From a plasmid, in the sequence record NZ_CP090008.1: DNA of 64,000 nucleotides; one strand, given 5' to 3'. Below the pieces are notes generated by a model. The model saw nothing but the letters and a program-made list of their open reading frames with translations, had not been told where the DNA came from and did no database searches. Below are positions 3,684 to 60,673 of this stretch, piece after piece; within the stretch, counting starts at the first letter, position 1; every line of letters starts with the position of its first letter. Both the position numbers and the translations under genes were made by a program.

Positions 3684-3699
3684 AATTTAGGATTAAGAT

Positions 3700-4689: not shown

Positions 4690-4691
4690 AT

Positions 4692-4952: not shown

Positions 4953-4970
4953 GAGAGGTGGAGGATATTA

Positions 4971-5657: not shown

Positions 5658-5679
5658 TATATTGAAAGGAGGTGAGATT

Positions 5680-5742
5680 ATGGTCTATAAAAAACCTATT
5701 GTTGAAGATATTAAATTAAGTGCCTCTGCATTACTTGTATAA
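5680..5742 (+). CDS. Unannotated 20-aa peptide MVYKKPIVEDIKLSASALLV (second candidate substrate/precursor peptide)
   Basis: Perfect SD AGGAGGTGA 7 nt upstream of ATG; followed by 12-bp perfect inverted repeat 5764-5775/5820-5831 plus T-run. Confidence 0.45.
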   Translation: MVYKKPIVEDIKLSASALLV

Positions 5743-5763
5743 TATCTTAGTATAAGTCGGAGA

Positions 5764-5831
5764 GTTGAACAGAATAATTATGTAGTTAATATGACTAACA
5801 GGAAGTATTACTACAAAAAATTCTGTTCAAC
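5764..5831 (+). terminator. Stem-loop (12-bp perfect arms GTTGAACAGAAT/ATTCTGTTCAAC) followed by T-rich tract; likely leaky terminator/attenuator after peptide gene
   Basis: Direct reading. Confidence 0.5.
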
Positions 5832-5857
5832 TTTCCATTTTTTATAGAGTAATAAAA

Positions 5858-43946: not shown

Positions 43947-44422
43947 TAGGCTACCATCCGTTTTTCAGATATCTCTAACATGCGTTCAATTCCATCCAAA
44001 TAGCCGCTATATCTCTCTATTTCATCAAAAGTTTCTACTAAATAGATATTCGTATGAATCAAGTCAGATAGATCATCACTCATTAAAATCCAAGGATTAG
44101 ATTCTTCATCAATGCTAATTCCCTGTCTATCTTGATAACGATAGAGTCGAGATAGTAGATTAGCACCCCTTTCTTTCACAATTTCAATTTTTAAAGTCAA
44201 TTCATAATCTTCAACAGGATTGAGCATTTTGTCTTCTCCTACAATATCGACATAAGATACATTAAATTTCTGACAAATGATGTCTATTAATTCGGTTGAG
44301 ACTGAACTCGTTCCATTTTCATAACGACTCAGACTATTTCGTGAAATACCTACAATCCGTGCAAATTCGGGTTGTGTTAAGTCATGTGTTTTACGTAAGG
44401 ATTTTATGTTCTTTCCAATCAT
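43946..44422 (-). CDS. pezA: PezA antitoxin (HTH-XRE + epsilon-like domain), 158 aa
   Basis: N-terminal HTH; overlaps pezT start by 1 nt. Confidence 0.8.
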   Translation of the reverse strand: MIGKNIKSLRKTHDLTQPEFARIVGISRNSLSRYENGTSSVSTELIDIICQKFNVSYVDIVGEDKMLNPVEDYELTLKIEIVKERGANLLSRLYRYQDRQGISIDEESNPWILMSDDLSDLIHTNIYLVETFDEIERYSGYLDGIERMLEISEKRMVA

Positions 44423-44799: not shown

Positions 44800-45183
44800 T
44801 CAGTGTAATTCTGAAATCGCATCATAAATTGACTGTAATTTCTTATTATCTTTATTCTTTGTGTCAATCAAAGTATGTAGCTCTTCAATTTTCTTTTGAC
44901 TACTTTGAATATCGCTATTATTATCTGCAATAAGTCTTTTAAGATGTTGCTGATAACTGGTAGTGATATCTGTCTCTTTTCCTGTTCTAACCTCTGTAAC
45001 TTTGGGTTTAGAACTAAAATTTGATTCCGTCACAGGTGCTTGTTTGCGCTTTTGAAAAGCTGCTTCATAATTTACATCATTACCCCCTTGATGATTTCCA
45101 AATAAGGCCGCAATTTTATCTGGATCTTCTTGATTTTCTGATTTACTTTCTAATGGTTGATTAAAATTCCAATCTTTTGTCAT
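44800..45183 (-). CDS. Hypothetical protein
   Basis: ORF. Confidence 0.4.
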   Translation of the reverse strand: MTKDWNFNQPLESKSENQEDPDKIAALFGNHQGGNDVNYEAAFQKRKQAPVTESNFSSKPKVTEVRTGKETDITTSYQQHLKRLIADNNSDIQSSQKKIEELHTLIDTKNKDNKKLQSIYDAISELH

Positions 45184-45413
45184 TCACTCATTTCATCCTT
45201 TCTAAATTCAGAATCATCGAATTGTCTTTCTTTACCAAAGGCATGGTCAAGAGCTTCTTCAAAACTCATGTGACTGATGCTTTGACGCCTTTTGAACGTC
45301 GCAAACATCGCTGTCTCCAGTTGTTCTTTGTAAGCAGCTAGTTTTTCTGTCTCTCTTGCTACCTTGCTTTCTTGCCTAGTGACCTTTTCTTCTAAGCGTT
45401 TGATTATGGTCAT
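45180..45413 (-). CDS. Hypothetical small protein
   Basis: ORF, overlapping stop/start. Confidence 0.4.
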   Translation of the reverse strand: MTIIKRLEEKVTRQESKVARETEKLAAYKEQLETAMFATFKRRQSISHMSFEEALDHAFGKERQFDDSEFRKDEMSE

Positions 45414-45463
45414 ATATGATCCTCCTTCATTCTGATATTAGCTAAAACATCTTGATTTTGTTA

Positions 45464-46549
45464 TCACAATTCTAAACATTGAGAGGTTTGTCTTACTGGT
45501 GGATTTCCAAAAGTCTCTTTCACAGTCTCAAGCATAAATTGTAAATCTGATTTCTTTTCACTAAGAATATCGTTCCAGTCTATTTTTTCTTTCCTAGACT
45601 CATTATTAGGTAAATCCAGTAAAACAGGCAATCCTGATTGAGATAACTTATCAGAAAAAGCTTTTCCTGCATCATCACAATCTACCGCCAATATCAGTAA
45701 AACAGGATGATTATCAAAATAGGTAGTGGTATCACGAATTGTATTGAACAAAGGCAATAACTTTGAAGGTGTTACTGTATCTAAGAATTCCAACTTCTGA
45801 TTTTCTTCAGCTATCAGTCGTAAAGTTTGATAAGCCACAACAGACCTTTTTAATCCCTCCATAGATACCAAACGAACATCTGATAAACTTTGTTTGTGCA
45901 GCTCGTAATAACTCATTAAGTCGATGAACGATTCACAAAAGACCAGTCTATTTGGTTTACCAATGTCAAAGGAGATTCCAACATGTCCATGGCTTCCTTT
46001 TAGAATTGTTTTTAACCTCTCTCTAGGAAGAGAGTGATTCTTATAAATACCTTGTAAGCTTGCTGCCTGCAGCTTGTGACGATGATCAAAGCTTTTAAAA
46101 ACAATAACAGGTTCAACAGTTTCATTTGTTTTCCAACTGGCTTGTGCCATCAAACCTTCTTGTATCATCTTTTCTATGATTTCTTCTGAGATTCCTCTAC
46201 ATTTTGTTAAGTAATATCTTGCCAGACTACAGTTAGAATCTTCTACTCTCTTTAAAGGATAATAAAATAGTCTCTCTCTTTTTTCTTGAACAGCTTCTTT
46301 TTGAAAAGGTTCTTCAGAAAGAAAAGCTAGAGCTTCTTTAAAAGAAATTCCCTTAACAAGTCGAACAAAATCAATGACATCACCTTGAATATCTCTTGAA
46401 AACCATTTAAAAGTATTGGTAGTTGAAAAAATCCGAAATGAATCATGTTCAGGATGTTCATAGACACTGCTAGAAACTTGTTTAAAGGAGATACCTAAAC
46501 GACTTGCTACATCAAGAATTGAAATTTGCTTACATTCTTCTATTTCCAT
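45464..46549 (-). CDS. DnaG-like primase (CHC2-like N-terminus with degenerate Zn finger + Toprim domain)
   Basis: ISILDVASRLGI… but Cys ligands replaced (EHPEHDSF / WFSRDIQGDVIDF); Toprim E…DxD: LVFCESFIDL… AVDCDDAG. Confidence 0.6.
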   Translation of the reverse strand: MEIEECKQISILDVASRLGISFKQVSSSVYEHPEHDSFRIFSTTNTFKWFSRDIQGDVIDFVRLVKGISFKEALAFLSEEPFQKEAVQEKRERLFYYPLKRVEDSNCSLARYYLTKCRGISEEIIEKMIQEGLMAQASWKTNETVEPVIVFKSFDHRHKLQAASLQGIYKNHSLPRERLKTILKGSHGHVGISFDIGKPNRLVFCESFIDLMSYYELHKQSLSDVRLVSMEGLKRSVVAYQTLRLIAEENQKLEFLDTVTPSKLLPLFNTIRDTTTYFDNHPVLLILAVDCDDAGKAFSDKLSQSGLPVLLDLPNNESRKEKIDWNDILSEKKSDLQFMLETVKETFGNPPVRQTSQCLEL

Positions 46550-47195: not shown

Positions 47196-47306
47196 CTTAG
47201 ACCTTCTTTCTAAAAAAACTAGGTCAAGAATAGCAGATAAATCTTGAAAAAAGTATCACAGAGCCGTAAAAATGCCACCCGAAGGTGGCCAATATAACTT
47301 ACAAAA

Positions 47307-49430
47307 TTAGTAATCCGTCTGATAAAGTTTTTTATACAAACCATTTTTCATATTCAATAGTTCTGTATGACTTCCTTGTTCTACAATTTCTCCTTTATCC
47401 ATTACAAAAATCTGGTTAGAATCGATAATGGTAGAAAGTCGATGTGCAATAACAATAATTGTAATATTTTGTTCTTTAAATTTCTGCATAATCTCTTTTT
47501 CATTAACATTATCTAGATAACTTGTGGCTTCATCTAAAAGTATTATTTTAGGTTTCTTAACTAGCGCTCTTGCTAAAATTATTCTCTGACGTTGCCCTCC
47601 TGACAGATTCATTCCCATTTCTGAAACTAAAGTATTATACCCCATGGGCATTTCCATAATTTCATCATGGATATTAACTAACTTACAAATTTTTGTCATT
47701 TCTTCCTCTGAGACTGAGATATCTCCAGCAATATTCTCATGTATGGTTTTATTAAATAAAGTCATGTCTTGTGGGACAATGCCAATTTGTTGACGAAGAT
47801 ACTGTTTATCCAACAAATTATAATCTAAGTCATCAAATAAAATACTACCTGAGGATGCTGGAAATAAACCTATCAATAATTTGGAAAGGGTACTTTTACC
47901 TGATCCAGAAGAGCCAACAATTGCTACCTTTTCCCCTTTCTTTATTTCAATAGACACATTAGAGAGTACTTTTTTACTATCTCTAGTATATGAAAATGAA
48001 ACATTTTTAAGTGCGATTTCCCCATTTAAGTCGTGTTTCACTACACCATTTATTTCAGTTTCTTCATCTAAAATCTCTAAAATCCGAGATAAAAATGTTT
48101 TGCTATTGTAGAATGCTACAATCGTATCAAAAATACTATTAATCTTACCAAATAATAGAGATGACAAAGAATATACTGCAAAAATTCCACCTAACTTATT
48201 ACCTAAATGATTATCTGGCAACAACATAATAAATAATAGGATAAATGGAGATATAAAAGTGATAATTGAAAATAACGAATTAACAACACTTGAGAACAAT
48301 TCACTGGCTCTATATCTATAAAGATACTTATCTAAATAACCTTTCCATTGTTTAAACGTTCGAACTTCAAATCCTTCCATTTTTATTCCCATCATAGAAT
48401 AAATCATTTCGATTTGTTTATTTTGGAGATCATTCTGAGCTATCACAAAAGATTTACTTTTTTGTTCCAAATTCTTTCTAGTCAATAGAAGCAACAACAA
48501 ATTTATTACCACTAACATAAGAGCGATAATCGCCACGAAAAAATCAATATATAGAAAGTAAAACAAAATACAAATTACAAAACCAATATCTAATATTCCT
48601 AGTACAACCTGATTTGTAAATAATTGCCGAATTCTACCCAAACCATTTATAGAATAAATTAAATCACCACTACTTCTAGTAGAGAAAAATTTATATGGTA
48701 ATTGAAATAAACGACCAATTACACTATTATTCAGTCTTTTATCTATATCGTTTGTCAGATTAATAGAAAGATATCTCTGACCGAGCATTATAATAAAGTA
48801 TAGTAATGTAAAAATAATAAAATTGAGCGCTAAAATTGCTGGATTAAACTGATTACCACCTGTTGCTTGATTTAATAGCTGTTGCGTCCATATAGGTAGA
48901 ATAAAGCTAACCGCATAACTTACAAAAGTTAGAAATAACAGAGGTACAAAATATTGCCAAGATTGCCAAAGTTGCGCATAAATCTCTCCGTAATTCTCTT
49001 TTGATTTTTGTTTTATTACTCTATCACTGCTAGAAATACTAATTAAAAATTCTGAGAAACCGGCTGAGAACTCATTTAAATCATATCTTAATTTTCCGAG
49101 TTCAGGATCAATTACCCAAACAAATTTAGAAGTTACTTTTTCTACAACAACAAAATGCTTACTCTCCCACAATGCAATGGCTGGAACTTTTATCTGTTTA
49201 TATACATCTGGTCTATCTTTTGGAAAACGGAATGATTTCACTTTAAATCCCATATTTTCTAACAGTTCAATTAAATTTTGAAAACTAGTTCCATCCCTCC
49301 CTGTTTCTTTTAGATTTCTCAGATCTTTAACGGAAATTTCGTGATTATAAAAACTCGACACCATCGCAACACAGCATAATCCACACTCTGTTTTTTGGTG
49401 TTGTTCGATAAACGGGATGTTTCTTTTCAT
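47307..49430 (-). CDS. lanT: Bacteriocin/lanthipeptide ABC exporter with N-terminal C39 peptidase domain (LanT)
   Basis: QKTECGLCC (C39 catalytic Cys), 6 TM, Walker A GSSGSGKST, LSGGQRQR. Confidence 0.85.
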   Translation of the reverse strand: MKRNIPFIEQHQKTECGLCCVAMVSSFYNHEISVKDLRNLKETGRDGTSFQNLIELLENMGFKVKSFRFPKDRPDVYKQIKVPAIALWESKHFVVVEKVTSKFVWVIDPELGKLRYDLNEFSAGFSEFLISISSSDRVIKQKSKENYGEIYAQLWQSWQYFVPLLFLTFVSYAVSFILPIWTQQLLNQATGGNQFNPAILALNFIIFTLLYFIIMLGQRYLSINLTNDIDKRLNNSVIGRLFQLPYKFFSTRSSGDLIYSINGLGRIRQLFTNQVVLGILDIGFVICILFYFLYIDFFVAIIALMLVVINLLLLLLTRKNLEQKSKSFVIAQNDLQNKQIEMIYSMMGIKMEGFEVRTFKQWKGYLDKYLYRYRASELFSSVVNSLFSIITFISPFILLFIMLLPDNHLGNKLGGIFAVYSLSSLLFGKINSIFDTIVAFYNSKTFLSRILEILDEETEINGVVKHDLNGEIALKNVSFSYTRDSKKVLSNVSIEIKKGEKVAIVGSSGSGKSTLSKLLIGLFPASSGSILFDDLDYNLLDKQYLRQQIGIVPQDMTLFNKTIHENIAGDISVSEEEMTKICKLVNIHDEIMEMPMGYNTLVSEMGMNLSGGQRQRIILARALVKKPKIILLDEATSYLDNVNEKEIMQKFKEQNITIIVIAHRLSTIIDSNQIFVMDKGEIVEQGSHTELLNMKNGLYKKLYQTDY

Positions 49431-49442
49431 ATCTAACCCCCA

Positions 49443-52397
49443 TTAATTTAAAAGTAGTATATCATTTAATCTAGTCCTACTTTTTCTATCATTAGCCATC
49501 AATATTCCCATTTCTCCTGTCAAAATCCCCCAATCATCACATTCATAAGTTTCTTTATCCAAAAGATATGAACTACTTTCAGTAGCTATTCTATTTTCTA
49601 TATCAACAGAATAGCCTAAAATAGAATCTAAAATGACTAGGTTCCCGATACTTCCATGACAGATTGAATTATCTAAAGTAGAATCTTGATTTAAAATTTT
49701 ATTGGAATAATCTTGAACTTCGGTCTTTAAAAATTTGTCAGGAAATTCATTAGTTTCTAAATAGTTCTTGGCATTAACTATTCCCACAATACCATTACAC
49801 CATGAATAATACTTGACATTATTTCTTAAAGGAAAACAATTTTTTCCACATAGTAACGAACGTTCTTTGTCAAGATATTCTTTTATACAAGAAATAATGG
49901 AAGTTTTTGCATCAGATTTGCATGTGTTAGATAAAGAATATCTATAAAGTTGCGTAATAATGCCATAATTACCATGAGCATATCCAGGATCATTTTCAAT
50001 CCAAAATCCATCTTTTTTATATTTTTCTAGTATTTTTTGAACTACACCTTCAGACAATTTCTGAGTCAACTCAGTTACCCGAGAACTATCGAGCATTGTT
50101 TTCTGGATTTTTATCAGTACTCCTAAAATTCCTGCTAAACCACCTATTATATCTAAATTGTCAATATTTCGTAGATGTCTAAATGTTGATGACAATGTTT
50201 CATATATAATCTCTTCGATATCTTCAACAAATGGAGTACCTTCTTCTCTCAACACACACAATGTATATAAGTATCCATATACACCAGTAAAAGCACCTAA
50301 CTGGTGTACAGGGAAATTCCCTTGTAATTCTTTTATATAGTTATTGGTATAATTGATAACCCCAGGTAAAAGCGTCCGTAATCTAGTATCATCTATGCTT
50401 GTTATTCCTAAAATCATACCAGAAGTTCCACTATATAGACTATAATCCATTGGATATATCTCATAATTTTTATTCATAGCCACCATCGATAACCAACTAA
50501 TCTCAGTATTAAATTCAAATTTAGCTGATGAAATTCGATTGATTATATTTGAAGTAATAGTCTCAGTATTCGTGTGTTCTTCAGATATCCTAGATTTCTT
50601 TGGAAATAACTCGCTCCCCATAAAAGCCATATTTATAATTCGTTTTTGTCTGAGTAAATTATCATCTGATAAACTAGTTATTCTATTTAAAACTTTATTA
50701 ACAATACTATGTCCGTCTAAAGAACAAATATATCGACCTAGTCCATTACGAATTTCATTGCTACTTGTATTCGCATAAAATATTGGAATATCACCTTTTC
50801 TAAACTGACAAACCTCATCTTTCATCATAACATTATCAAAGAAATTAGCAACATCACCATATTCAAACAAACGAAGCAAATACATTTCAAAATCATATTT
50901 ATTTTTTAACAATTCTGGGTGGTGACTTGTTTCAAGAAATTGTGCATAAACATTGGTATTTCGATAAATATATCTCGTCTCACAATTCTCAAAATATTTA
51001 ACGATCATCCTAGAAACTATATCTCTATTTTGTAAAACAACTTTGTAAATAGTTTCAAATCCTCTTTGAACCTCGTTGAGATAATTAGAACACGATACGT
51101 TATTCCCTTTATATCTTACTGTGCTAGGGAAATCCCCGACCATTTTAAATACTTTTTCAATTCTAATTTCATCAGTCCCAACATTAGCCAGTTGATGGGA
51201 TAAATAAGGTGATTCTCGTCTTTCGCCTGAATTTAATGCTCCAATTTCCATTCCTTTGTCATTATTCGCTGAATAAAGACTCATTGGTAATATTCCCACA
51301 CTATAAACTGAGTTAGTTACAAAATTATAAATATTTTGTGAATTGGAAGTGATATTTACAGGTTCACTAAAATGCAATATCGTCTCATTATCAATAAGAT
51401 AAGGGTATTCTTGACAAGCTAAAATATTTTCACCATGATAATCTTTAGCACCAAAAATATGTAAAAATGCTAAAAGTTTTCCCATGTTTGTATAATAAGC
51501 TTCTACCTCCTGAAGTGAATTGCATTCTTTTTCTTCTATAAATTCTACAAAGCTATAAGAATCTTTACTCAATGTTTTAGGGACGAATAATGATTCTGAA
51601 AGTCCAAAACGATGAGCAAATTCTTTAGAAAATAAGCTCAAATTAACATCAATAGACATATTCCTTGGTTTGTAAACCAGCTTTTTCTTAGTATTTAATC
51701 TAAGAATACAGACGCTTTTACCATTAGAGTGAGTATCACCTGCATTAAAATCAATACTTGATAATTTTAAATCCTTATAATTAAAATAACTTTCTAAATC
51801 TAGTAGATTCTCTTCAAAATTAAGGATAATTTGTTCAATATAGTCCAAGATGTTAGAAATCTTTTTATCTAATAACTCAAACAAAACGGGATACTTTTTA
51901 TAAAACTCCAGGATGTAATCTCTATCCTTTAATAAAGTATTGATAAAATAATTATATCTCTTTTTACTGTCTTCACCTTTTAAACGAGACGCTCTCCTTA
52001 AATCATTAATCTCTAAAACAACCGTTCTGTAGCTCATATTCATACAAATTTCAAAAAATACTGATTCAATATCTAGAATAAATTCATTTGTATTAGTTAT
52101 ACATTGCGCTTTATTTAAAAAGCTAGTTAATCGCTCTAAGTATTTAAAGCAAATTGGTTTAAATAAATCTAGCCAATGAATACTTACTCTGAGTTTTTCC
52201 TGAGGGTTATATTCATCATATAAGATTGTTCCTAACTCTCGCTCAATATAATCTTTTCCCCACTGCTCGTACTGAAGAAATTTTTCTTCCCAATCTTGTA
52301 GACTATCTCCAGAGGTAGTCTTTAAAAATTCATCTAACTGCTCATCATCTTCGATATTATTAAATAAACTTAACCATTTTTCAGACACCATAGACAT
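49443..52397 (-). CDS. lanM: Class II lanthipeptide synthetase LanM (dehydratase + LanC-like cyclase)
   Basis: ~985 aa; C-terminal LanC motifs (SWCNG, CHGSIGN); SD AAGGAGG before ATG at 52397. Confidence 0.85.
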   Translation of the reverse strand: MSMVSEKWLSLFNNIEDDEQLDEFLKTTSGDSLQDWEEKFLQYEQWGKDYIERELGTILYDEYNPQEKLRVSIHWLDLFKPICFKYLERLTSFLNKAQCITNTNEFILDIESVFFEICMNMSYRTVVLEINDLRRASRLKGEDSKKRYNYFINTLLKDRDYILEFYKKYPVLFELLDKKISNILDYIEQIILNFEENLLDLESYFNYKDLKLSSIDFNAGDTHSNGKSVCILRLNTKKKLVYKPRNMSIDVNLSLFSKEFAHRFGLSESLFVPKTLSKDSYSFVEFIEEKECNSLQEVEAYYTNMGKLLAFLHIFGAKDYHGENILACQEYPYLIDNETILHFSEPVNITSNSQNIYNFVTNSVYSVGILPMSLYSANNDKGMEIGALNSGERRESPYLSHQLANVGTDEIRIEKVFKMVGDFPSTVRYKGNNVSCSNYLNEVQRGFETIYKVVLQNRDIVSRMIVKYFENCETRYIYRNTNVYAQFLETSHHPELLKNKYDFEMYLLRLFEYGDVANFFDNVMMKDEVCQFRKGDIPIFYANTSSNEIRNGLGRYICSLDGHSIVNKVLNRITSLSDDNLLRQKRIINMAFMGSELFPKKSRISEEHTNTETITSNIINRISSAKFEFNTEISWLSMVAMNKNYEIYPMDYSLYSGTSGMILGITSIDDTRLRTLLPGVINYTNNYIKELQGNFPVHQLGAFTGVYGYLYTLCVLREEGTPFVEDIEEIIYETLSSTFRHLRNIDNLDIIGGLAGILGVLIKIQKTMLDSSRVTELTQKLSEGVVQKILEKYKKDGFWIENDPGYAHGNYGIITQLYRYSLSNTCKSDAKTSIISCIKEYLDKERSLLCGKNCFPLRNNVKYYSWCNGIVGIVNAKNYLETNEFPDKFLKTEVQDYSNKILNQDSTLDNSICHGSIGNLVILDSILGYSVDIENRIATESSSYLLDKETYECDDWGILTGEMGILMANDRKSRTRLNDILLLN

Positions 52398-52508
52398 AAT
52401 GATTTCCTCCTTAATTACTAATAGATTATCAAATTTACCGTTTATTAGAATGAGTAATATGTGCAATTTTTGTAAATAAATTAAAAAAGCTGCATCTTCT
52501 GCAACTTT

Positions 52509-53105
52509 TTAATCTGGTGGAAAATAGCCCAACTGCTCAGCGATATGAATCGCCTCCTGCCTGTTAGTCACTCCAAATTTTGAAAAGATATTGGCCAAGT
52601 GATTGGAAACTGTACGTTTACTCACATCGACCTTGTCACAGACATCATCAATGGTCAAGCCATTTCTAACCAATTCTAGTATCTCGATTTCTCGTGGTGT
52701 TAGCACCTCTACCATCACTTCATCTGAAAAGACCTTACCACCTAGATAAATCTTTTCCAGTTTTTTCACCAACTCATCTGGGTTCATGCTTTTATCCAGA
52801 AAACCATAAGCCCCCATAGCTTTAGCTCGGTGTTCATACATCTTTTTGCTGTATCCCGTCAAAATTACAACCTTACTAGAGCAACCATTGTCGATAATCT
52901 CTTGTGCCAAGGTCAGCCCATCATCTTGATACAGACTCGTCAGGTTGATGTCAATCAAAATAATGTCGTAGTCATTAAAAGCAATCTTCGAAATAGTCGA
53001 AAAATTATCCACTAACTGGACCTTTTTAATGTTTTCCGATAACTCTAAAATCATCTTGATACTTTGGCTAAATAATTTATGATCATCAATTAACAAAATT
53101 TTCAT
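52509..53105 (-). CDS. lanR: LuxR/NarL-family response regulator
   Basis: REC domain MKILLIDDH…; C-terminal HTH LuxR (ILELVRNGLTIDDVCDKVDVSKRTVSNH). Confidence 0.8.
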   Translation of the reverse strand: MKILLIDDHKLFSQSIKMILELSENIKKVQLVDNFSTISKIAFNDYDIILIDINLTSLYQDDGLTLAQEIIDNGCSSKVVILTGYSKKMYEHRAKAMGAYGFLDKSMNPDELVKKLEKIYLGGKVFSDEVMVEVLTPREIEILELVRNGLTIDDVCDKVDVSKRTVSNHLANIFSKFGVTNRQEAIHIAEQLGYFPPD

Positions 53106-54660
53106 AACACAACTCCTTATCAATCGGGAGAGAAATTTCTACACGAAATCTCTTATTATTTTCAAAAATCTGCATCTGACCACCTAAAACACTAATTTTA
53201 TTAGACATATTTTTCAAGCCATAACCTAAGGATTTTTCTGTTTGAAGGCAGTCATTTTCAGAAATGATAAAAATAGCGTCATCATGCACATCAATCTTCA
53301 AAGAAATCGTTCCACCACTAGCGTACTTAACGGCATTGGTCGCCAACTCCTCAACCAGACGATAGGCAATTTTATCGTAAGGAGATAAAAGCCTAAAGTG
53401 GTCAGGAAACTGTGTGACGACTTCATTTTCTGCGTGATAGCGCTTGACAATCCGATTAATCAGCCCTTGATACTGGATGTCTAACTGCTCGTCTGTTTCT
53501 ACCATTGGCTGATAATAATCCATCCGCTCACGAATCCGCTGAACCAACTCCTCTGTCACCAGATTGATCTGTTCACCAAAAGCTTGATTGCTACTATATT
53601 GATTGAAATTTTTTATCGCCATCACATTTTGCAGGATTTCATTGTGAAGAAATTCGGAGAACTGTTGTTCTGTGTCTTCATTTGCCAGCAGACTTTTCAC
53701 CATACGATTACGCTTTAAAAAGAGAACTTTTACATAATCCCTAGCATCTAGCATTTCAGCAGAACGAAAGAGGCGAATCAATTCTTCCGAACAAATCCCG
53801 AACAATAGTAACATGATATTCAAGACCAAAAAGCTCGTGTTTAAGTCTAGACGAAAAATGATGAAAATACCTACTAACAAAAATATAACTAGTAAAAACA
53901 AGTGTGAAAAAGCTTTTATATAGGACAATTTCAACTCTGATACCTTTTTTTGAAGAGAGCTGACAATCGTTTTGAAGTGTACAAAAGCTAAGATACCAAG
54001 AATTTCTAGATACCAGACTAGGTTCATCACTCCTGAGCCCATCGTATTGATATACAAAAAGAAATAAGAAAGAGGCAATATCAAAGCTAATATCCACAAA
54101 TTTCGTCTCTGATACTTGAGCTTGCTTTTCAACTCTTTATGATATAAAATCAGTAAAATCAAGGGAACAAGGTTTAAAAAGAAAGACGCAAACAAGGACA
54201 GAAATAGAAAAATTGAAGGACTTAACAGATACGAACTAATGGTGATTAGTGTCAACACAAAGGACACACTCAACAGTTCTTCTCCTATTTTCTCTCCCAG
54301 AAAGATAATAGACAGAGAACTATACACCAATAAAAAAGAGTTGAGCGGATGAAGAATATCAAAAAAGTACAACAGGGTGCTCGCAACTCCTTGATTAAAT
54401 ATGGATTGCCAGCTAATGAGAAACATCATCAGGAGCAACCAAAGTTTCAACTCACTATACCGAAAGGTCACAATATTACAAATATAGCTAAATACAATTA
54501 AGGCAATAATCAGCAATAAAACCATCTGTAAGGAAAAATCTGTCGAAAAATCCAGAGGAATCCTATAATAAATATAAATCATCAAAGTTAGATGATTAAA
54601 AATCGTCAACCACCACAATAAAAGTGAGTTTTTCGATATCAATTTGACAAACTGTTTCAT
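53086..54660 (-). CDS. lanK: Membrane sensor histidine kinase (HisKA_3/NarL-partner type)
   Basis: Multi-TM N-terminus; C-terminal ATPase G-boxes. Confidence 0.7.
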   Translation of the reverse strand: MKQFVKLISKNSLLLWWLTIFNHLTLMIYIYYRIPLDFSTDFSLQMVLLLIIALIVFSYICNIVTFRYSELKLWLLLMMFLISWQSIFNQGVASTLLYFFDILHPLNSFLLVYSSLSIIFLGEKIGEELLSVSFVLTLITISSYLLSPSIFLFLSLFASFFLNLVPLILLILYHKELKSKLKYQRRNLWILALILPLSYFFLYINTMGSGVMNLVWYLEILGILAFVHFKTIVSSLQKKVSELKLSYIKAFSHLFLLVIFLLVGIFIIFRLDLNTSFLVLNIMLLLFGICSEELIRLFRSAEMLDARDYVKVLFLKRNRMVKSLLANEDTEQQFSEFLHNEILQNVMAIKNFNQYSSNQAFGEQINLVTEELVQRIRERMDYYQPMVETDEQLDIQYQGLINRIVKRYHAENEVVTQFPDHFRLLSPYDKIAYRLVEELATNAVKYASGGTISLKIDVHDDAIFIISENDCLQTEKSLGYGLKNMSNKISVLGGQMQIFENNKRFRVEISLPIDKELCYENFVN

Positions 54661-54740
54661 AAGTATCCACTTCCTGAACTACTTTAATATCAGTATAACA
54701 CAATACCAGAATTGTCGGATAGGCAACTCTGGTATTTGAC

Positions 54741-56756
54741 TTATTTTTCAATAATTTGCCAACTTACTCTGTAAGTCACTAGCAGGTAAAGGACAAAGAG
54801 TAAAACCGCTACTCCCAGATAGGTGATATCAATAGAAATGCTGGTATTAGCGAAATTCTCAAAATAGCCCAAAAGAGCTGTACTCAAGGCAAGTGCTAGC
54901 GGACCAGCGATAACCAGCGGAACCAAGAAATAACTTAGAATCTGTTGCAAAAGAATAGAGCGATTTTGCTTTCTCTTATTCCCAAGAAGGTATAAGATTT
55001 GATAATCATTGACACTTTCCAAAGAACTTGTAGAAGTTTGAAGTGACAAGATACTGAGGGAAATAATGATAAAAATAACACTGACAAAAATCATGACAAA
55101 GACGATGACGCCCATAAATCCAAGATAAATCTCAAAAATTCTTCCTTTCGTTTGATAGGTGAACGGATTCAACTCTGCTCCATCACGAGTGAAGTAGTAT
55201 TTTTCTATCCACTGACTTAAGAATGTTTCTACTTTCCGTTTGTCGATATTTTCTTTGAAATTGGCAACATAGGTCGTGTGGTCTTCCATCAATCCAACTA
55301 CTACCTTATCTGGTACAATTAAGGTTCCTGTGTCATTTGTACCCACTGACGATAAAAAGTAAACTGTTTCAAGTGGCTTTGAAGACGCAAGATTAAGAGA
55401 ATAACCGTTAATCATGAGGGTTTTTGTCGTTAATAGAAAGTCCTGAATCTGCTTGGCAGTTCCTTTATAGTTAGCATTGACCAGAAATTGGTTATCTGCC
55501 AAGTCAACCTCTCTTTCACCTTGCAGTTTGCGGAGATGATTGTAGGCAGAAATTCCTAAAATCGGTACTTTTGATTTAGGAAGTTCCTTATCATGCGCCC
55601 AGAGATTGCTAGTATCAATCAAATCTTTATAGGTTAAATCACTAGAATAGATAGGATAGCTGTACTCCTCTTTGAAGAGGTTAAAGTCAAATCCATCTGC
55701 TTTCAATCTGTCTTTGACAGATTCCTGAGAAAACTGGAACTCTTGACCACGATAAAGATTGACAGATACGTCATAAGGTGAGTATTTGTTCAGCTCTCGG
55801 TTCATAGTCGTATAGGCACTACCACTAAAAACTAGTAAGCTGAGAGCCAGTGTCAAGGTCAAGGATAAGACAGCCAACGTGACCGAATTACTATCAGCTT
55901 GTTTTGAAAATTGACGAATTTTAAAACTGTTTAGTTTGTTATAGTAGGTTTGAGGCAGTTTTCTAAGGGAAACCAAGATAAAATGGCTCAAGGTATTGTA
56001 AAATAAAATCACAAAAATCACGAAGACAGATACTAGCAAGATACCCCAACTTTTCAAGAGTGATAGATGGTGATAGTCTGAAAAATAGAAAGCACCAAAA
56101 CCGATAACAGCTGTCGAAAGAATAAAGAGAAGTGCTTGAAGAACTGGCTTGCCTTTTGCCAAGACAGATTTCTTGACCCCATTTTCTTGAATGAGTGCAA
56201 TGATATTCTGCTTTCTAAAGGTAAGAATGTCCATGACACCAACAATAAAACTGGTTACCAAATAGGAATAAACTAGTAAGATGACAGACTTGCTATCAAA
56301 GAAAAGCAGACTACCAAAGTAATTGGCCATAAAAAACTCAGATGCAATCTTAGCTAGAATGACCAGTAAGATCACTCCAAGCAAGAAACCTAGAATCAAG
56401 GAAAAGATATTGACCAGCATGGTTTCAAAGAACAGGGTACGGATAATCTGCCTCTTCTTCATTCCCAGCGTTGCATAAAGTCCCAGCTCTTTCTTGCGCC
56501 GTCCCAGGACAAAGTTTGTGGAATAAACGACGAGAAAGGCAATCGCCGATAGAATCAGATAGGAAAGCAAGCCCATGTACTGGCTCATCACCGTCGTTAA
56601 CATTTCCTTTGCTCCTGATAAACTTTGCATCACTGGATGGCTAGGTAAAGCATTAAAAGCGTAGAGCAAGCTATAAATCAAGGTCAGACTGAAAAAATAG
56701 ATGGTATAGGTCTGTAAATTTCGAAATACATTTCGTAAAATCAATTTTGGATACAT
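54741..56756 (-). CDS. FtsX-family ABC permease (lantibiotic immunity/efflux, 671 aa)
   Basis: 10-TM FtsX-like architecture with large extracellular domain. Confidence 0.7.
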   Translation of the reverse strand: MYPKLILRNVFRNLQTYTIYFFSLTLIYSLLYAFNALPSHPVMQSLSGAKEMLTTVMSQYMGLLSYLILSAIAFLVVYSTNFVLGRRKKELGLYATLGMKKRQIIRTLFFETMLVNIFSLILGFLLGVILLVILAKIASEFFMANYFGSLLFFDSKSVILLVYSYLVTSFIVGVMDILTFRKQNIIALIQENGVKKSVLAKGKPVLQALLFILSTAVIGFGAFYFSDYHHLSLLKSWGILLVSVFVIFVILFYNTLSHFILVSLRKLPQTYYNKLNSFKIRQFSKQADSNSVTLAVLSLTLTLALSLLVFSGSAYTTMNRELNKYSPYDVSVNLYRGQEFQFSQESVKDRLKADGFDFNLFKEEYSYPIYSSDLTYKDLIDTSNLWAHDKELPKSKVPILGISAYNHLRKLQGEREVDLADNQFLVNANYKGTAKQIQDFLLTTKTLMINGYSLNLASSKPLETVYFLSSVGTNDTGTLIVPDKVVVGLMEDHTTYVANFKENIDKRKVETFLSQWIEKYYFTRDGAELNPFTYQTKGRIFEIYLGFMGVIVFVMIFVSVIFIIISLSILSLQTSTSSLESVNDYQILYLLGNKRKQNRSILLQQILSYFLVPLVIAGPLALALSTALLGYFENFANTSISIDITYLGVAVLLFVLYLLVTYRVSWQIIEK

Positions 56757-56768
56757 ACTCTCCTCCTC

Positions 56769-57506
56769 CTATCTGGTACGGCTGTAAATCTCTTGCAAAT
56801 ACTGTTCATTAGATAAGCTGTTACGTTCCAAATCATCCATAATCTTTCCATCGCTAAGTAGCACCATCCGTGAAGAGTACTTGGCTGCGGCAGGGTCATG
56901 CGTAACCAGTAAAATGGTAATACCAAAACTTTTATTGATTTCCTGCAAAAGTACCATCAGTTTTTCAGAATTGGCAGAGTCCAAGGCTCCTGTCGGCTCA
57001 TCTGCGATAATCAGTTTAGAATCATCAATCAAGGCTCTAGCAGTTGCCACGCGTTGCCGCTGACCACCTGATAACTGATTAGGAAACTTATCTTTTAAGT
57101 TTTGGATGGCCAACTTATCCAAAATTTCCTCAATCTTATCCTGATGTTTTTTGATAGTTTTCCCCTGAATTTGAAGAGGTAGAACAATATTTTCATAAAC
57201 TGTCAAGGTTTCCACCAAGTTGTAAGCTTGGAAAATATAGGAAATGTTTTTAGCACGATAGTCAGCTAGTTCATTTTCCTTGGCATGGATGATGTCAAAA
57301 TCTTCAAATCGAATCTCACCTGATGTTGGTTTATCAATCGTTGAAATACAGTTGAGAAGTGTTGTTTTTCCACTACCACTAGCCCCCATAATTGCCAGAA
57401 ATTCACCTTTTTCAACGGACAAGTTCACATCTAATAAAGCATGAACGATATTATCCCCTTGACCAAATGTTTTCGTTAAGCCTGTCACATTAAGCTGTTT
57501 CATCAT
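56769..57506 (-). CDS. ABC transporter ATP-binding protein (partner of FtsX permease)
   Basis: GASGSGKTT, LSGGQRQR, IIADEPTGALD. Confidence 0.85.
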   Translation of the reverse strand: MMKQLNVTGLTKTFGQGDNIVHALLDVNLSVEKGEFLAIMGASGSGKTTLLNCISTIDKPTSGEIRFEDFDIIHAKENELADYRAKNISYIFQAYNLVETLTVYENIVLPLQIQGKTIKKHQDKIEEILDKLAIQNLKDKFPNQLSGGQRQRVATARALIDDSKLIIADEPTGALDSANSEKLMVLLQEINKSFGITILLVTHDPAAAKYSSRMVLLSDGKIMDDLERNSLSNEQYLQEIYSRTR

Positions 57507-57597
57507 TTCATTCCTCCGTTTCTTTTTTACACTCTCATTATACGGTTTCTTTCAAGGTTTGCCATGAGTATTTTGTGCAATATATTTATGCTATAAA

Positions 57598-57630
57598 AAA
57601 AGCCGATACTTTTTAGGTATCGGTCGATAT
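57598..57630 (-). terminator. Rho-independent terminator on minus strand between structural-peptide genes and immunity ABC genes (attenuator position)
   Basis: ACCGATACctaaaaaGTATCGGcttttttta on minus strand. Confidence 0.6.
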
Positions 57631-57633
57631 TGA

Positions 57634-57741
57634 TTATTTTCGATTGTTTCTTTTTTTCATAAAGTAAACAATCCCTATGACAATAACTCCTAAGACCAGT
57701 ACAGGTGCATAGAAGTCTAGTGTTCCAATAATCCCTTCCAT
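57634..57741 (-). CDS. Unannotated 35-aa single-TM peptide MEGIIGTLDFYAPVLVLGVIVIGIVYFMKKRNNRK
   Basis: SD GGAGG 8 nt upstream; between lanA1 and ABC ATPase. Confidence 0.5.
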   Translation of the reverse strand: MEGIIGTLDFYAPVLVLGVIVIGIVYFMKKRNNRK

Positions 57742-57772
57742 TTTATCCTCCTGTCAAAGAATAGAGGTGGTT

Positions 57773-57949
57773 TTATCCACAGCGCACGTTTGGCGAAGTA
57801 CATTCATAAGAATGTGTAAACCACCAACCACAGCGACCCTGTACTGTTAATCTAACAGCCGTACTCCACCCAGCAGCAGATTTACCATTCAACTCTTGGC
57901 TATTAATTTCATAATCCAAAGAATCAATCTCAAAGTTATCTTGTTTCAT
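57773..57949 (-). CDS. lanA1: Lanthipeptide precursor LanA1 (58 aa; core …STAVRLTVQGRCGWWFTHSYECTSPNVRCG)
   Basis: Leader EIDSLDYEINSQELNGKSAAG; Thr/Ser + 3 Cys core; TxSxEC motif. Confidence 0.75.
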   Translation of the reverse strand: MKQDNFEIDSLDYEINSQELNGKSAAGWSTAVRLTVQGRCGWWFTHSYECTSPNVRCG

Positions 57950-58035
57950 TTGTATTTATCCTCGTAAATATAACACTAAATCAAAGTGTTGTCAATGTTT
58001 TGTAATAAAATACTAGAATTTTCCTTTTGTTTTAT

Positions 58036-58218
58036 CTAACAATGAACATTATTTGTCGTACACTCATAGGAACAGGTGAAACACAATCCACAGCGACCTG
58101 CTAGTGTCATTTTAAAAGCTGTGTACCACCAGCCAGATCCTGAGGTACCATTGAGTTCCTGATTGTCAATTTCAAATTCAAGCGTATCAATCTCAGTATT
58201 TACTTTTTTACTTTTCAT
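58036..58218 (-). CDS. lanA2: Lanthipeptide precursor LanA2 (60 aa; MKSKKVNTEIDTLEFEIDNQELNGTSGSG|WWYTAFKMTLAGRCGLCFTCSYECTTNNVHC)
   Basis: Paralog of A1/A3/A4; SD GGAG. Confidence 0.75.
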   Translation of the reverse strand: MKSKKVNTEIDTLEFEIDNQELNGTSGSGWWYTAFKMTLAGRCGLCFTCSYECTTNNVHC

Positions 58219-58379
58219 AATTTTACTCCGTAAATTTCTTTCATTCCGTTCATATTTTCCGTAAACCTGTATATAGTCCTTCAGTCTACTCTCAAACCAA
58301 AGGACTATAACAAGTTTCAAATTGAAAAATGAATCCTATAGAAACAAATCTACATCAAACTTTTTAGTGGTGAGAAAAA

Positions 58380-58562
58380 CTAGCCACACTTCACATTGTT
58401 CGTTGTGCATTCATAAGATCCTGTAAACCAACGTCCACAACGTCCCGCCAATGTAAGTTGAACAGCTGTAAACCAACCAGAACCTGATTTACCAGAAAGC
58501 TCTTGGTTTTTTACTTCAAAATCAAGTGTATCAATTTCTTTACGATTGTTATTTTTTCTCAT
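58380..58562 (-). CDS. lanA3: Lanthipeptide precursor LanA3 (…GKSGSG|WFTAVQLTLAGRCGRWFTGSYECTTNNVKCG)
   Basis: ORF track; conserved leader and core. Confidence 0.8.
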   Translation of the reverse strand: MRKNNNRKEIDTLDFEVKNQELSGKSGSGWFTAVQLTLAGRCGRWFTGSYECTTNNVKCG

Positions 58563-58719
58563 TTTCTTCTACTCCTACTCACTATGGTTTAAACCTAGTT
58601 CTATACTCTCCAAAGAAAATGAAAATTTAAGTAAAAGAATCATTAAAAACAGTTTAATTTCTACAAAGTTATATTAACTTAAAATTTCATTTTCAAATTG
58701 ATGAGCATCGAAATCTAGG

Positions 58720-58902
58720 CTATCCGCATTTCACATTGTTCGTTGTGCATTCGAAAGAACCTGTGAACCAACGTCCACAACGTCCCGCCAATGTAAGTTG
58801 AACAGCTGTAAACCAACCAGAACCTGATTTCCCGGAAAGTTCTTGGTTTTCAACCTCGAAACTTAGAGAATCAATCTCTGGACGACTTGTATTTTTAGCC
58901 AT
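58720..58902 (-). CDS. lanA4: Lanthipeptide precursor LanA4 (…GKSGSG|WFTAVQLTLAGRCGRWFTGSFECTTNNVKCG)
   Basis: ORF track; 1 aa different core from A3. Confidence 0.8.
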   Translation of the reverse strand: MAKNTSRPEIDSLSFEVENQELSGKSGSGWFTAVQLTLAGRCGRWFTGSFECTTNNVKCG

Positions 58903-59049
58903 AAGGTTGCCTCCTTCCTTCTTTTAGATGATCATCTTTACAGTAACTAGTATAAACTCTAGTATTGGCTAAGTAATGAGTAAATCGTGCAAGTTTCTTA
59001 TTTTCGAGAAAAATTTTTATAGTGCCCAAAAAAAAACCTGCCAAATTAA

Positions 59050-59072
59050 TTTTTGGTAGGGTTTTTGGTAGG
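59050..59072. promoter_or_regulatory. Tandem direct repeat TTTTTGGTAGG x2 (12-bp phase) overlapping -35 region of lanA operon promoter; candidate response-regulator box
   Basis: On coding (minus) strand: CCTACCAAAAA-C-CCTACCAAAAA then ~30 nt then TATAAA. Confidence 0.5.
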
Positions 59073-59275: not shown

Positions 59276-60440
59276 GTGAAGAAATTTCCGACGGGAGAGA
59301 GTACTCACTACTTTTTCTTTATGTTAAAGTAGTGGTGTCTTGTAAAGTCGTAGGAATCTATGGTACTAGACGTCGAGTATTGAAAATGAAATCACTAAAA
59401 CATGGAATTATTCAAGACAAAAGAGGTAATGTCATGCGTGCAGTATTTGGAATTGATGTAAGTAAAACAAGTTCTGAGGTGGCAATTTTAGTCAACTGTT
59501 AGAAGGTTCATGGCTACACCATACTCAATGATGCCACTGGATTCAATAGCCTGTTGGGTGACTTAAAAACTGTTCATAATCCTGAGATTATATTTGAGAC
59601 TACAGGCTTCTATTCTCGACGTCTTCAAGCCTTTCTTGAGGAATATAGTTACGCTTACACTCAGCTAAATCCGCTGGAAGCTAAGAAGTAATTGAATAGT
59701 TTGTGAGTTCGTAAAGCAGATAAAATTGACGCTGAAAAGTTGGCTAATTCTTAGCTTGTGCACAATCGTAAACCAACTTACGTGCAGCAAGAAGTTTATC
59801 AACACCTACGTGATTTAAGCCGTTTCTATCAAAATATGAATGAAGATCTTGTTCGAGCTAAAAATCGTCTGCACAAGGTTCTACAAATCACTTTTCCTGA
59901 ATTGGAGAATCTATTATCCACACCTACTTGAGAGCAATATTGGAACTTAGTGATGGCTTTTCCATGCAAAGAGTTTGTATTAAGCATATCTCTAAGTGAC
60001 TTGTGTGAGATTATCCAGCAATCTACCTCAAAACGTATCTCTTAAAAGAGTATTGCTTACCTGACTGATAAACTTTTAAAACTCGCTAAACAATCTTTTT
60101 GTGCAATCAAGAAAACCTCTCCAATGCTTGAAGAGGTTCGTTCCTATTCTCAAGAATTACTTCGTCTTTCTGAACGCAGACAAGTTGTCTTAAACGACAT
60201 GGTAGCTCTAGCTCAGCCTTTACCAGAGCATGACATCTTACGGTCAATTCCTGACATCGCAGAAACCACAGTGAAATCTAACATAGGCGAATTGGGAAAT
60301 ATTCGTTGCTTTCAGTCTACCAATTCATGCAATATTGCTGACTTTTATGAGAAACGAAAAAGACAATACCTTTAACAAATCCTCATGCAGTTCCATCAAT
60401 ACATCGTCTCATTCAGACAATGTTTTACCTCAAGTACCTA
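59276..60440 (+). pseudogene. IS110-family insertion sequence with multiply interrupted transposase (several in-frame stops)
   Basis: MRAVFGIDVSK… (DEDD N-domain) with stops; C-terminal 83-aa ORF; 5' hairpin AGTAGTGA…TCACTACT. Confidence 0.7.
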
Positions 60441-60673
60441 ACCTTTATCATCCCTGCTAAAAAAACGATCAAGTTTGACTATCCATTTAATTGTATCTCC
60501 TTATAAATAGGGTCTCGTTTTTTTGAGTGATTAATTTCTAAGTTACTATGAAGAATATAGCATTAGCTTTAAACACCCCTTCACATAATATTTTGTGTCT
60601 AAAAAGTATTGATTTGTCTTAGGCCTGAAAAGTACTTAAAATTATATCCCTTCCCCTTTATTCATTCTAAATA

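Follow-up and report, generated by a model that had tools for sequence, protein, structure and literature searches.

The window analysed here is a 64-kb (64,000-nucleotide) stretch of DNA. On its minus strand lies a class II lanthipeptide locus with a full set of genes: four paralogous precursors, one synthetase gene (lanM) and one exporter gene (lanT). Protein domains and family profiles agree on this description, which the initial annotation had also reached, and an ORF check confirmed the strand and the coordinates of every gene that it described. The genes are as follows:

58720..58902, minus strand: lanA1 (srnA1/pldA1 homologue), 60 aa, core GWFTAVQLTLAGRCGRWFTGSFECTTNNVKCG; NF040663, 112.6 bits
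58380..58562, minus strand: lanA2 (srnA2), 60 aa; NF040663, 117.6 bits
58036..58218, minus strand: lanA3 (srnA3/pldA3), 60 aa; NF040663, 105.7 bits
57773..57949, minus strand: lanA4 (srnA4/pldA4), 58 aa; NF040663, 115.6 bits
57634..57741, minus strand: a 35-aa ORF, here S35, MEGIIGTLDFYAPVLVLGVIVIGIVYFMKKRNNRK, with one transmembrane (TM) helix and a basic C-terminal tail
56769..57506, minus strand: lanF (srnX/pldF), ATPase of the immunity ABC transporter; ABC_tran, 2.7e-36
54741..56756, minus strand: lanE (srnY/pldE), BceB-type permease with two FtsX stretches
53086..54660, minus strand: lanK (srnK/pldK), polytopic histidine kinase; HATPase_c
52509..53105, minus strand: lanR (srnR/pldR), NarL/LuxR-type response regulator; Response_reg and GerE
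49443..52397, minus strand: lanM (srnM/pldM), class II lanthipeptide synthetase, 984 aa; DUF4135 (6e-93) and LANC_like (4e-28)
47307..49430, minus strand: lanT (srnT/pldT), leader-cleaving exporter, 707 aa; Peptidase_C39 (5e-34), ABC_membrane and ABC_tran

All four precursors exceed the curated cut-off (60 bits) of NF040663, the NCBIfam equivalog for the salivaricin M family of lantibiotics, with E-values of 1e-31 to 1e-34. Because their scores reach 106-118 bits against this cut-off, the family call is not due to chance. The plantaricin C family model gave the LanA peptides 18-21 bits, below its cut-off of 29. The lanA1 product is an exact match to a deposited salivaricin M family lantibiotic and has PldA1 in the same 90% cluster, and the lanA3 product is 100% identical to PldA3 in UniRef. 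Translation of lanA3 truly starts at the ATG of MKSKK, which has a GGAG ribosome-binding site upstream; the TTG at which the mechanical ORF opens lies farther upstream and is not the start. The ring-forming residues are common to all four cores, and the predicted mersacidin-type T-x-S-x-E-C motif is present, in ring B. The leader and core consensus proposed earlier holds at all positions but one, the fourth peptide reading EINSQEL and not E-x-x-NQEL. A pair of cores differing by one residue is also real (F22/Y22); however, the pair is the promoter-proximal SrnA1 and SrnA2 (F22Y being the sole difference of the lanA2 core from that of lanA1), the earlier numbering having run in the opposite direction. 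The lanA3 core has five cysteines and lacks the terminal glycine, and the lanA4 leader ends in AA, with a core that opens GWSTAV.

LanM combines an N-terminal dehydratase with a C-terminal LanC-like cyclase in one bifunctional protein, as defines class II; it scores 598 bits against TIGR03897 (cut-off 304) and is homologous to LicM2 and CylM. Its cyclase retains the zinc ligands C867 (in SWCNG) and C913 and H914 (in CHG). The change of C867 to tyrosine inactivates PldM of the pneumococcal pneumolancidin (pld) locus; with the ligands intact, LanM of the window is therefore not the inactive C867Y allele. Double-glycine-type leaders together with a C39-bearing exporter are likewise class II features. 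Cys16, His92 and Asp108 of LanT appear to occupy the usual C39 motifs, judging from the protein sequence.

Exact matches to deposited Streptococcus proteins were found for all four LanA peptides, LanM (QEM31562.1), LanT and S35, and the matching accessions include QEM31432, QEM31433, QEM31561, QEM31562 and UOT91659 of Streptococcus salivarius. It should be noted that the numbers QEM31432/33 and QEM31561/62 are not consecutive. LanT is identical to deposited S. salivarius proteins, and PldT falls into its 90% cluster. The flanks of the locus are 93-96% identical to S. salivarius megaplasmids. The window also contains a PezAT pair, as described for pSAL813, the 183-kb megaplasmid of S. salivarius LAB813, which carries a pld-like multipeptide locus (PMC6787328); the four QEM entries named above are labelled S. 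salivarius. Directly upstream of the locus lies an IS110 transposase pseudogene. When the whole locus was used as a megablast query against PLSDB, a single record was matched, NZ_CP020429.2, spanning lanA to lanR only; in this remnant copy two lanA genes are damaged, and LanM and LanT are missing. In the distant-mode plasmid search, LanM and LanT retrieved generic ABC-domain matches only.

Two published systems are directly comparable. Salivaricin 10, encoded on the megaplasmid pSALI-10 of strain SALI-10 (Barbour et al. 2023, PMC10235938; 2026, PMC13219514), has the same gene order (A1-A4, X, Y, K, R, M, T), also on the minus strand of an S. salivarius megaplasmid. Pneumolancidin of S. pneumoniae P174 (Maricic et al. 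2016, PMC4742701) has the same organisation (A1-A4, FE, KR, M, T), and its locus shares ICE-type genes with the neighbourhood in the window; the initial annotation had expected a pneumolancidin-type locus that is not novel, and these papers bear it out. Differences from pneumolancidin are that (i) pld is the cargo of a chromosomal pneumococcal ICE, whereas the replicon here is a megaplasmid; (ii) the cores of PldA1 and PldA2 are two residues apart, whereas the corresponding cores of the window are one residue apart; (iii) the pneumococcal products are reported as N-terminally truncated by eight residues.

The peptides themselves can be compared by mass. The published N-terminus of salivaricin 10 is GWFTAVQL with phosphothreonine at position 4, with Ser3 in SrnA4 (PMC10235938), and the cores of the window match both. 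The mature peptides thus start at the last glycine of the leader junction, and cleavage therefore follows GS or AA. We calculated masses for cores cut at this point, with three dehydrations and one phosphate, and compared them with the masses in the main text of PMC10235938: the calculated values are 3535.58 (A1), 3551.57 (A2) and 3669.60 (A4) Da, and the published ones 3535.58, 3551.58 and 3669.60 Da. The three masses agree to within 0.01 Da, with no peptide-level difference found, and in this calculation no other cleavage site fits the published values. The G(S/A)G junction, singled out earlier as noteworthy, is thus a canonical GS/G or AA/G cut. Retained phosphothreonine at core position 4, the hallmark chemistry of the salivaricin 10 family, was missing from the initial annotation; Thr4 is present in the A1, A2 and A4 cores, and A3 has a threonine at position 5. 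The thioether rings have been demonstrated by MS/MS and NMR of identical peptides (PMC10235938), and the retained phosphate is likewise known from the literature. No SrnA3 product has ever been detected, and the peptide is absent among those found in SALI-10; in glucose cultures SrnA4 is the sole peptide made. The T-x-S-x-E-C segment of ring B, described as a lipid II motif (PMC10235938), has the conserved glutamate of mersacidin and lacticin 481-type peptides; however, there is no family-level homology to these, and the peptides of the window have a long N-terminal tail with phospho-Thr4.

We conclude, with a probability of about 0.93, that 47307-59072 is the intact salivaricin 10 (srn) locus of an S. 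salivarius megaplasmid and the orthologue of the pneumococcal pld locus. For the present copy, the identity with deposited srn/pld genes and its intactness are established. The locus, its products, the phosphothreonine, the activity and much of the regulation are already published (2016, 2019, 2023, 2026).

An intact appearance does not by itself make a producer. The copy could be silent or serve immunity only, protecting its host against salivaricin 10 or pneumolancidin of neighbours while no active peptide is made. Precedents are the silent copies of pneumococci P130, PN1 and MNZ14 and of many oral streptococci; inhibitory activity is missing in most pld-positive pneumococci, and many copies are silent despite looking intact. 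Immunity-only islands, in which lanA is decayed and LanM and LanT are absent, are common in metagenomes, with NZ_CP020429.2 as a further case, and the IS110 pseudogene adjoins the present locus. However, a hidden disruption, which the initial annotation had allowed for, was looked for and rejected: every gene is full length, LanA, LanM and LanT are identical to deposited proteins, LanT is intact and the known inactivating C867Y change is absent from LanM. The masses calculated from the peptide sequences also coincide exactly with those of the peptides isolated from a producer, and we consider a silent or immunity-only copy very improbable.

It could also be supposed that the paralogues form an obligate multi-component lantibiotic, with alpha-type peptides docking to lipid II and beta-type peptides forming pores, each inactive alone. 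In S. pneumoniae P174, single deletion of pldA1, pldA2 or pldA3 abolishes inhibition, with A4 dispensable, which conflicts with the individual activities of A1, A2 and A4 in S. salivarius. The pneumococcal deletion phenotypes are, however, largely explained by lost autoinduction. Any one of purified SrnA1, SrnA2 and SrnA4 suffices for inhibition, and their MICs are equal, which already suggests a lack of synergy. As predicted earlier, the 64 kb contain one LanM and no beta-type peptide; a further LanA-like peptide is likewise absent, and the ring-forming residues are common to the four cores. A two-peptide lantibiotic of the lacticin 3147 or haloduracin type, which would have distinct alpha and beta precursors with a LanM for each, was rejected, with one LanM and four paralogues of the same type in the window, and an obligate multi-component system in general is hardly credible.

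The immunity transporter and the signalling pair of the salivaricin 10 locus were compared with the peptide-antibiotic resistance modules BceAB-BceRS, PsdAB and VraDEH. Permeases of the BceAB type are defined by a length of about 650 aa, ten TM helices and an extracellular domain of 200-250 aa between TM7 and TM8 (PMC5786555). LanE shows about seven TM segments, a hydrophilic stretch of 220 aa (residues 316-537) and then three TM segments, i.e., the same large loop after TM7, and is homologous over its full length to PsdB (1.7e-18) and BceB; hydropathy and homology thus identify it as a BceAB-type permease. In the pneumococcal locus, deletion of pldFE abolishes immunity. A two-component system of the BceRS type was rejected: BceS, an intramembrane-sensing kinase, has two TM helices joined by a short loop and BceR is OmpR-type, whereas LanK has about 8-9 hydrophobic segments within its first 300 aa and LanR has a GerE/NarL-type output domain. 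The ATPase domain of LanK is nearest to VraS/DevS, BceS not being among the PDB matches, and the nearest solved structures of LanR are DesR, NarL and VraR.

The locus had been described as a single operon, which does not hold. Reporter fusions in the pneumococcal homologue revealed separate promoters for pldA1, pldFE, pldKR and pldM (PMC4742701), and in the window terminators follow S35, the regulator and LanT. The predicted regulatory features are:

58976..58992, minus strand: 17-nt box TTGCACGATTTACTCAT upstream of lanA1, 21 nt upstream of TATACT; candidate SrnR/PldR site
57967..57995, minus strand: near-consensus sigma-70 promoter before lanA4 (TTGACA, 17 nt, TG-extended TATATT)
57603..57623, minus strand: intrinsic terminator closing the lanA-S35 unit (CCGATAC-loop-GTATCGG, then T7)
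57564..57580, minus strand: box TTGCACAAAATACTCAT upstream of lanF; the -10 hexamer TATAAT ends at 57537
52484..52510, minus strand: terminator-like hairpin between lanR and the lanM promoter
52450..52466, minus strand: box TTGCACATATTACTCAT upstream of lanM
47274..47289, minus strand: intrinsic terminator after lanT (GCCACC-TTCG-GGTGGC, then a T-run)

The 17-nt box, TTGCAC-N4-TACTCAT, occurs without mismatch exactly three times in the 64 kb, once each before lanA1, lanF and lanM, and is conserved in related and rearranged loci. The copies coincide with the promoters that have been reported as inducible and with no others, a distribution consistent with a binding site of SrnR/PldR. The lanF TATAAT is most likely the TATA box of pldF that is affected by a hyperinducible mutation (PMC4742701). 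The sequence before lanA4 is the best promoter match of the region (11 of 12 positions) and is kept in immunity-only islands; if it functions as a promoter, it would fit the finding of SrnA4 as the sole peptide in glucose cultures, and lanA4 and S35 would form a constitutively transcribed pair. Between lanA1, lanA2 and lanA3, no convincing sigma-70 promoters or terminators were found; separate promoters for each srnA gene have been proposed (PMC13219514).

The box and the S35 gene are the two items without mention in the salivaricin 10 and pneumolancidin papers cited here, and the published gene list of salivaricin 10 has no counterpart of S35. S35 begins 31 nt after lanA4 and has an AGGAGG ribosome-binding site. 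It was found in every related locus examined, with 80-100% amino acid identity and with length and frame kept. Compared with loci in which LanM is only 63-64% identical, its changed codons are synonymous versus nonsynonymous at 15:7, 14:6 and 12:4, and the replacements are conservative. In immunity-only islands without LanM and LanT, S35 is intact beside decayed lanA genes; where lanA4 has lost its start codon and frame, the neighbouring S35 still encodes a 100% identical protein, its nucleotide changes being silent. This pattern of codon changes indicates that S35 is under purifying selection.

The opposite view, that S35 is a chance ORF or a sorting-signal remnant and the stretch a mere spacer between lanA4 and lanF, agrees with the treatment of the stretch as intergenic in PMC4742701 and with gene callers skipping S35 in several contigs. 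The only profile similarity of S35 is to the signal model for sortase B QVPTGV, TIGR03065, and is below threshold (19.9 bits, cut-off 21.35). The corresponding RefSeq name was rejected, S35 being a stand-alone ORF with its own ribosome-binding site; it has neither a cargo domain nor a QVPTGV motif and therefore cannot be a sorting signal. Since, moreover, length and frame are kept even in loci with a LanM of 63-64% identity, there are two to three synonymous changes for every nonsynonymous one, and the protein is unchanged beside broken lanA4 copies, we consider it unlikely that S35 is not a gene.

As a gene, S35 is a candidate small subunit of the immunity/sensing module, by comparison with VraDEH, in which VraH is a precedent for a small third membrane subunit with a basic C-terminal tail; S35, however, precedes the transporter genes instead of following them. 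Neither a VraH-like nor an immunity family matched S35 in NCBIfam at E-values of up to 10, and homology to any named family was not detectable, so that the comparison is one of analogy and not of homology. The combined proposal, i.e., that S35 is a VraH-like small subunit of LanFE and/or LanK co-transcribed with lanA4 and that TTGCAC-N4-TACTCAT is the operator of the regulator, is in our view an even bet. If true, the small-subunit role would account for S35 and the promoter being kept in immunity-only islands with decaying lanA.

Taken together, the salivaricin 10 locus would operate as follows. Four precursor peptides would be made, and the single LanM would phosphorylate their serines and threonines, eliminate phosphate and cyclise, so that Cys14, Cys24 and Cys31 each close a (methyl)lanthionine ring, while the phosphate would stay on Thr4; ring B (T19-x-S-x-E-C24) would represent the mersacidin-type lipid II motif. 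The C39 domain of LanT would cut after GS (A1-A3) or AA (A4), and peptides of 32 residues would be exported. These would kill other Gram-positive bacteria, probably via lipid II, as the motif suggests, and would double as autoinducers, with the polytopic LanK and the NarL-type LanR relaying the signal. The regulator may then activate the lanA1, lanFE and lanM promoters, each with the box as its candidate site, and the BceAB-type LanFE would protect the producer, probably together with the 35-aa membrane peptide. The peptide products, phospho-Thr4, the rings, antimicrobial activity, autoinduction, the separate promoters and the requirement for M, T, K and FE are known for identical or orthologous genes; the regulator box, the role of the 35-aa peptide and the constitutive lanA4-S35 pair are suggested by the present analysis.

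The main finding adds nothing new beyond the published locus, and the two side observations may be of modest value for groups working on salivaricin 10 and pneumolancidin. With a defined regulator box, production, for which solid media or sorbitol are needed at present, could be up-regulated rationally. Through its tie to the immunity module, S35 may explain the puzzling link between the level of PldFE and the signalling threshold, as well as the lasting immunity of "cheater" streptococci.

We analyzed the lantibiotic locus at 47307-59072 (minus strand), and both the ORFs and the domain assignments agree exactly with the gene set that had been described from the sequence.

Genes of the lantibiotic locus, in the order of transcription
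58720-58902, minus: lanA1, small ORF, promoter-proximal
58380-58562, minus: lanA2, small ORF
58036-58218, minus: lanA3, small ORF
57773-57949, minus: lanA4, small ORF
57634-57741, minus: S35, 35-aa ORF (MEGIIGTLDFYAPVLVLGVIVIGIVYFMKKRNNRK) between lanA4 and lanF
56769-57506, minus: lanF, ABC ATPase
54741-56756, minus: lanE, FtsX-type permease, 671 aa
53086-54660, minus: lanK, histidine kinase, 524 aa
52509-53105, minus: lanR, response regulator with a GerE output domain
49443-52397, minus: lanM, 984 aa, DUF4135 and LANC_like domains
47307-49430, minus: lanT, 707 aa, Peptidase_C39, ABC_membrane and ABC_tran domains

The four LanA peptides are not chance ORFs, because each scores 106-118 bits against the NCBIfam model NF040663 ("salivaricin M family lantibiotic"), for which the cut-off is 60 bits. 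The leader and core consensus proposed in the initial annotation holds everywhere except at one leader position of the fourth peptide (NSQEL). The pair of peptides differing by a single core residue (F22/Y22) is real; however, it is the promoter-proximal pair, the genes having been numbered against the direction of transcription. No additional LanM or LanA-like peptide was found in the 64-kb window, as had been stated for the second LanM. By every testable criterion this is a class II lanthipeptide system and a salivaricin 10 locus, and it fits the salivaricin M family model; assignment to the two-peptide lantibiotics was considered and rejected on the criteria for membership.

The locus is already known. 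An exact-sequence look-up found the four LanA peptides, LanM, LanT and the 35-aa ORF among deposited sequences, most of the exact matches being labeled S. salivarius (QEM31432.1, QEM31433.1, QEM31561.1, QEM31562.1, UOT91659.1). In UniRef, "PldA3" of the pneumolancidin (pld) locus is 100% identical to the third LanA peptide, and PldA1 and PldT fall in the clusters of the first LanA peptide and of LanT, respectively. An identical LanM is listed by 722 blocks of a contig collection; the matches listed are ENA metagenome assemblies, with the same gene order in each. The S. salivarius version has been published as salivaricin 10, with megaplasmid srn genes A1-4, X, Y, K, R, M and T (PMC10235938; PMC13219514), X and Y corresponding to lanF and lanE. 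The mature peptides begin with GWFTAVQL with a phosphorylated Thr4 (Ser3 in SrnA4), and their published monoisotopic masses are 3669.60, 3551.58 and 3535.58 Da. For cores that begin at the Gly after GS or AA and carry one phosphate and three dehydrations, we calculated 3535.58, 3551.57 and 3669.60 Da; moving the core start downstream by one residue, or upstream by one or two, gave no match to the published masses. Therefore, the window copy encodes the published salivaricin 10 peptides. The leader is cut after GS (A1-A3) or AA (A4), the last Gly being core residue 1; the G(S/A)G junction, earlier singled out as unusual, is a canonical double-glycine-type site.

Work on identical or orthologous genes has established that rings A, B and C arise by LanM dehydration and cyclization, that Thr4 remains phosphorylated, and that the locus is autoinduced by modified, exported peptides. 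Ring B contains the mersacidin-type lipid II motif, including the essential Glu (PMC10235938). The salivaricin 10 peptides are bactericidal, each being active alone once purified. In S. pneumoniae, inhibition requires pldM, pldT and pldK, and immunity requires pldFE and pldK (PMC4742701). The LanM zinc ligands C867, C913 and H914 are all present in the window copy; this sets it apart from the inactive C867Y allele found in strains P130 and PN1, and the locus is intact.

The identification as a pneumolancidin-type locus that is not novel was correct, and a pld-like locus on megaplasmid pSAL813 was noted by its authors (PMC6787328). The replicon is an S. salivarius megaplasmid, not a pneumococcal ICE. 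The window flanks match S. salivarius megaplasmids at 93-96% identity, and a PezAT toxin-antitoxin pair is present, as reported on pSAL813. The immediate neighbors are nevertheless ICE-type genes, including an integrase.

ICE-type genes near the locus
44800-46549: Toprim, DUF5965 and DUF5945 genes
43176-44422, minus: PezAT (epsilon/zeta) pair
41915-42829, plus: tyrosine recombinase
31690-32763, minus: tyrosine recombinase

The PezAT pair and the two recombinases flank the locus, and all these genes together suggest that the lantibiotic genes lie in an ICE-derived segment carried on a megaplasmid. Directly upstream of the locus is an IS110-family transposase (59332-60460, plus), a pseudogene as it is split into several short ORFs. 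Two LPXTG surface proteins (18624-21164 and 23418-26192, plus) were also observed, one of which is an antigen I/II (Adhesin P1/BspA-type) adhesin, a finding already reported from megaplasmids of S. salivarius. A low-GC (27-29%) cluster at 754-7710 (plus) encodes one QueA-like, two divergent thymidylate-synthase-like and one dTMP-kinase-like protein, together with an APH-like phosphotransferase, a CYTH-NUDIX protein and another whose family is unknown. Each of them scores under the NCBIfam equivalog cut-offs and PADLOC candidate matches are weak only; the cluster resembles a cassette for nucleotide or DNA modification.

The locus had been described as a single operon, which is contradicted by published reporter data and by intrinsic terminators within the window. 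Separate inducible promoters precede pldA1, pldFE and pldM, and pldKR is not induced (PMC4742701).

Transcription signals in the locus
58976-58992, minus: shared box before lanA1
57564-57580, minus: shared box before lanF
52450-52466, minus: shared box before lanM
57995-57967, minus: near-consensus extended -10 promoter directly before lanA4, constitutive in appearance
57623-57603, minus: intrinsic terminator after the 35-aa ORF
52510-52484, minus: intrinsic terminator after the regulator gene
47289-47274, minus: intrinsic terminator after lanT

The shared box, TTGCAC-N4-TACTCAT (17 nt), has exactly three copies in 64 kb, all on the minus strand, with a -10-like hexamer 19-21 nt downstream of every one. 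The promoters bearing it are precisely the three reported to be peptide-inducible, and no box precedes the non-induced kinase gene in the window. Nearly all closely related loci fetched carry the box at the same three places, as do rearranged divergent loci (0-2 mismatches). The box is the obvious candidate operator of the NarL-type regulator; TACTCAT also agrees with the NarL heptamer TACYYMT, as would suit such a regulator.

In glucose cultures SrnA4 is reported to be the sole peptide made, which fits the constitutive-looking promoter of lanA4. This gene and S35 would form a separately, perhaps constitutively, transcribed pair. S35 starts 31 bases after lanA4, has an AGGAGG ribosome-binding site, is followed by a strong terminator and encodes one hydrophobic helix with a basic tail. 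Its stretch is intergenic in the pneumolancidin paper (PMC4742701), and the gene lists of the srn papers contain no counterpart. Every related locus fetched has S35, always of 35 codons, including the S. mitis and S. loxodontisalivarius loci, where LanM is only 63-64% identical. Compared to these loci, synonymous to nonsynonymous changed codons number 15:7, 14:6 and 12:4, and the replacements are conservative, pointing to purifying selection.

These divergent loci (two in S. mitis, with 3 LanA matches rather than 4, and one in S. loxodontisalivarius) have the order M-T-A1..A4-S35-F-E-K-R, whereas M-T comes last in the window. We also found immunity-only islands, on six metagenome contigs and plasmid NZ_CP020429.2, in which S35 and F-E-K-R are intact, LanM and LanT are missing, and the lanA genes have decayed (an A1/A3 fusion with a frameshift; lanA4 without its ATG, frame and three codons). 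The islands occur in several different genomic contexts, including beside ribosomal protein genes, and the former lanM-promoter box often persists downstream of the regulator. Their S35 protein is 100% identical, all nucleotide changes being silent, and they have kept both its ribosome-binding site and the promoter ahead of lanA4. Conservation of S35 beside decaying lanA genes is the strongest evidence on this ORF and groups it with F, E, K and R rather than with biosynthesis.

The FEKR cluster was filed under Bce in the pneumolancidin paper (PMC4742701). The permease is homologous to PsdB and BceB over its full length, and its seventh hydrophobic segment is followed by the characteristic loop of 220 aa. 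However, a BceRS-type sensor is ruled out: the partner of this BceAB-type transporter is a polytopic kinase (53086-54660, minus; about 8-9 hydrophobic segments, ATPase domain closest to VraS/DevS) with a NarL/VraR-class regulator (52509-53105, minus; closest to DesR, NarL and VraR). The nearest precedent for S35 is VraH, a small membrane protein whose C-terminus is basic and which serves VraDE, a transporter of the BceAB type, as its third subunit; the likeness is one without sequence homology. An NCBIfam profile search found no homology of S35 to named families, and the "sortase B sorting domain" under which RefSeq lists it derives from a compositional match below threshold.

If constitutive, the lanA4 promoter would keep the 35-aa peptide expressed. 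We give about even odds (roughly 0.5) to a reading in which the module for immunity and regulation includes both this small membrane peptide and the box as functional components; if true, it would be of modest, specialist interest.
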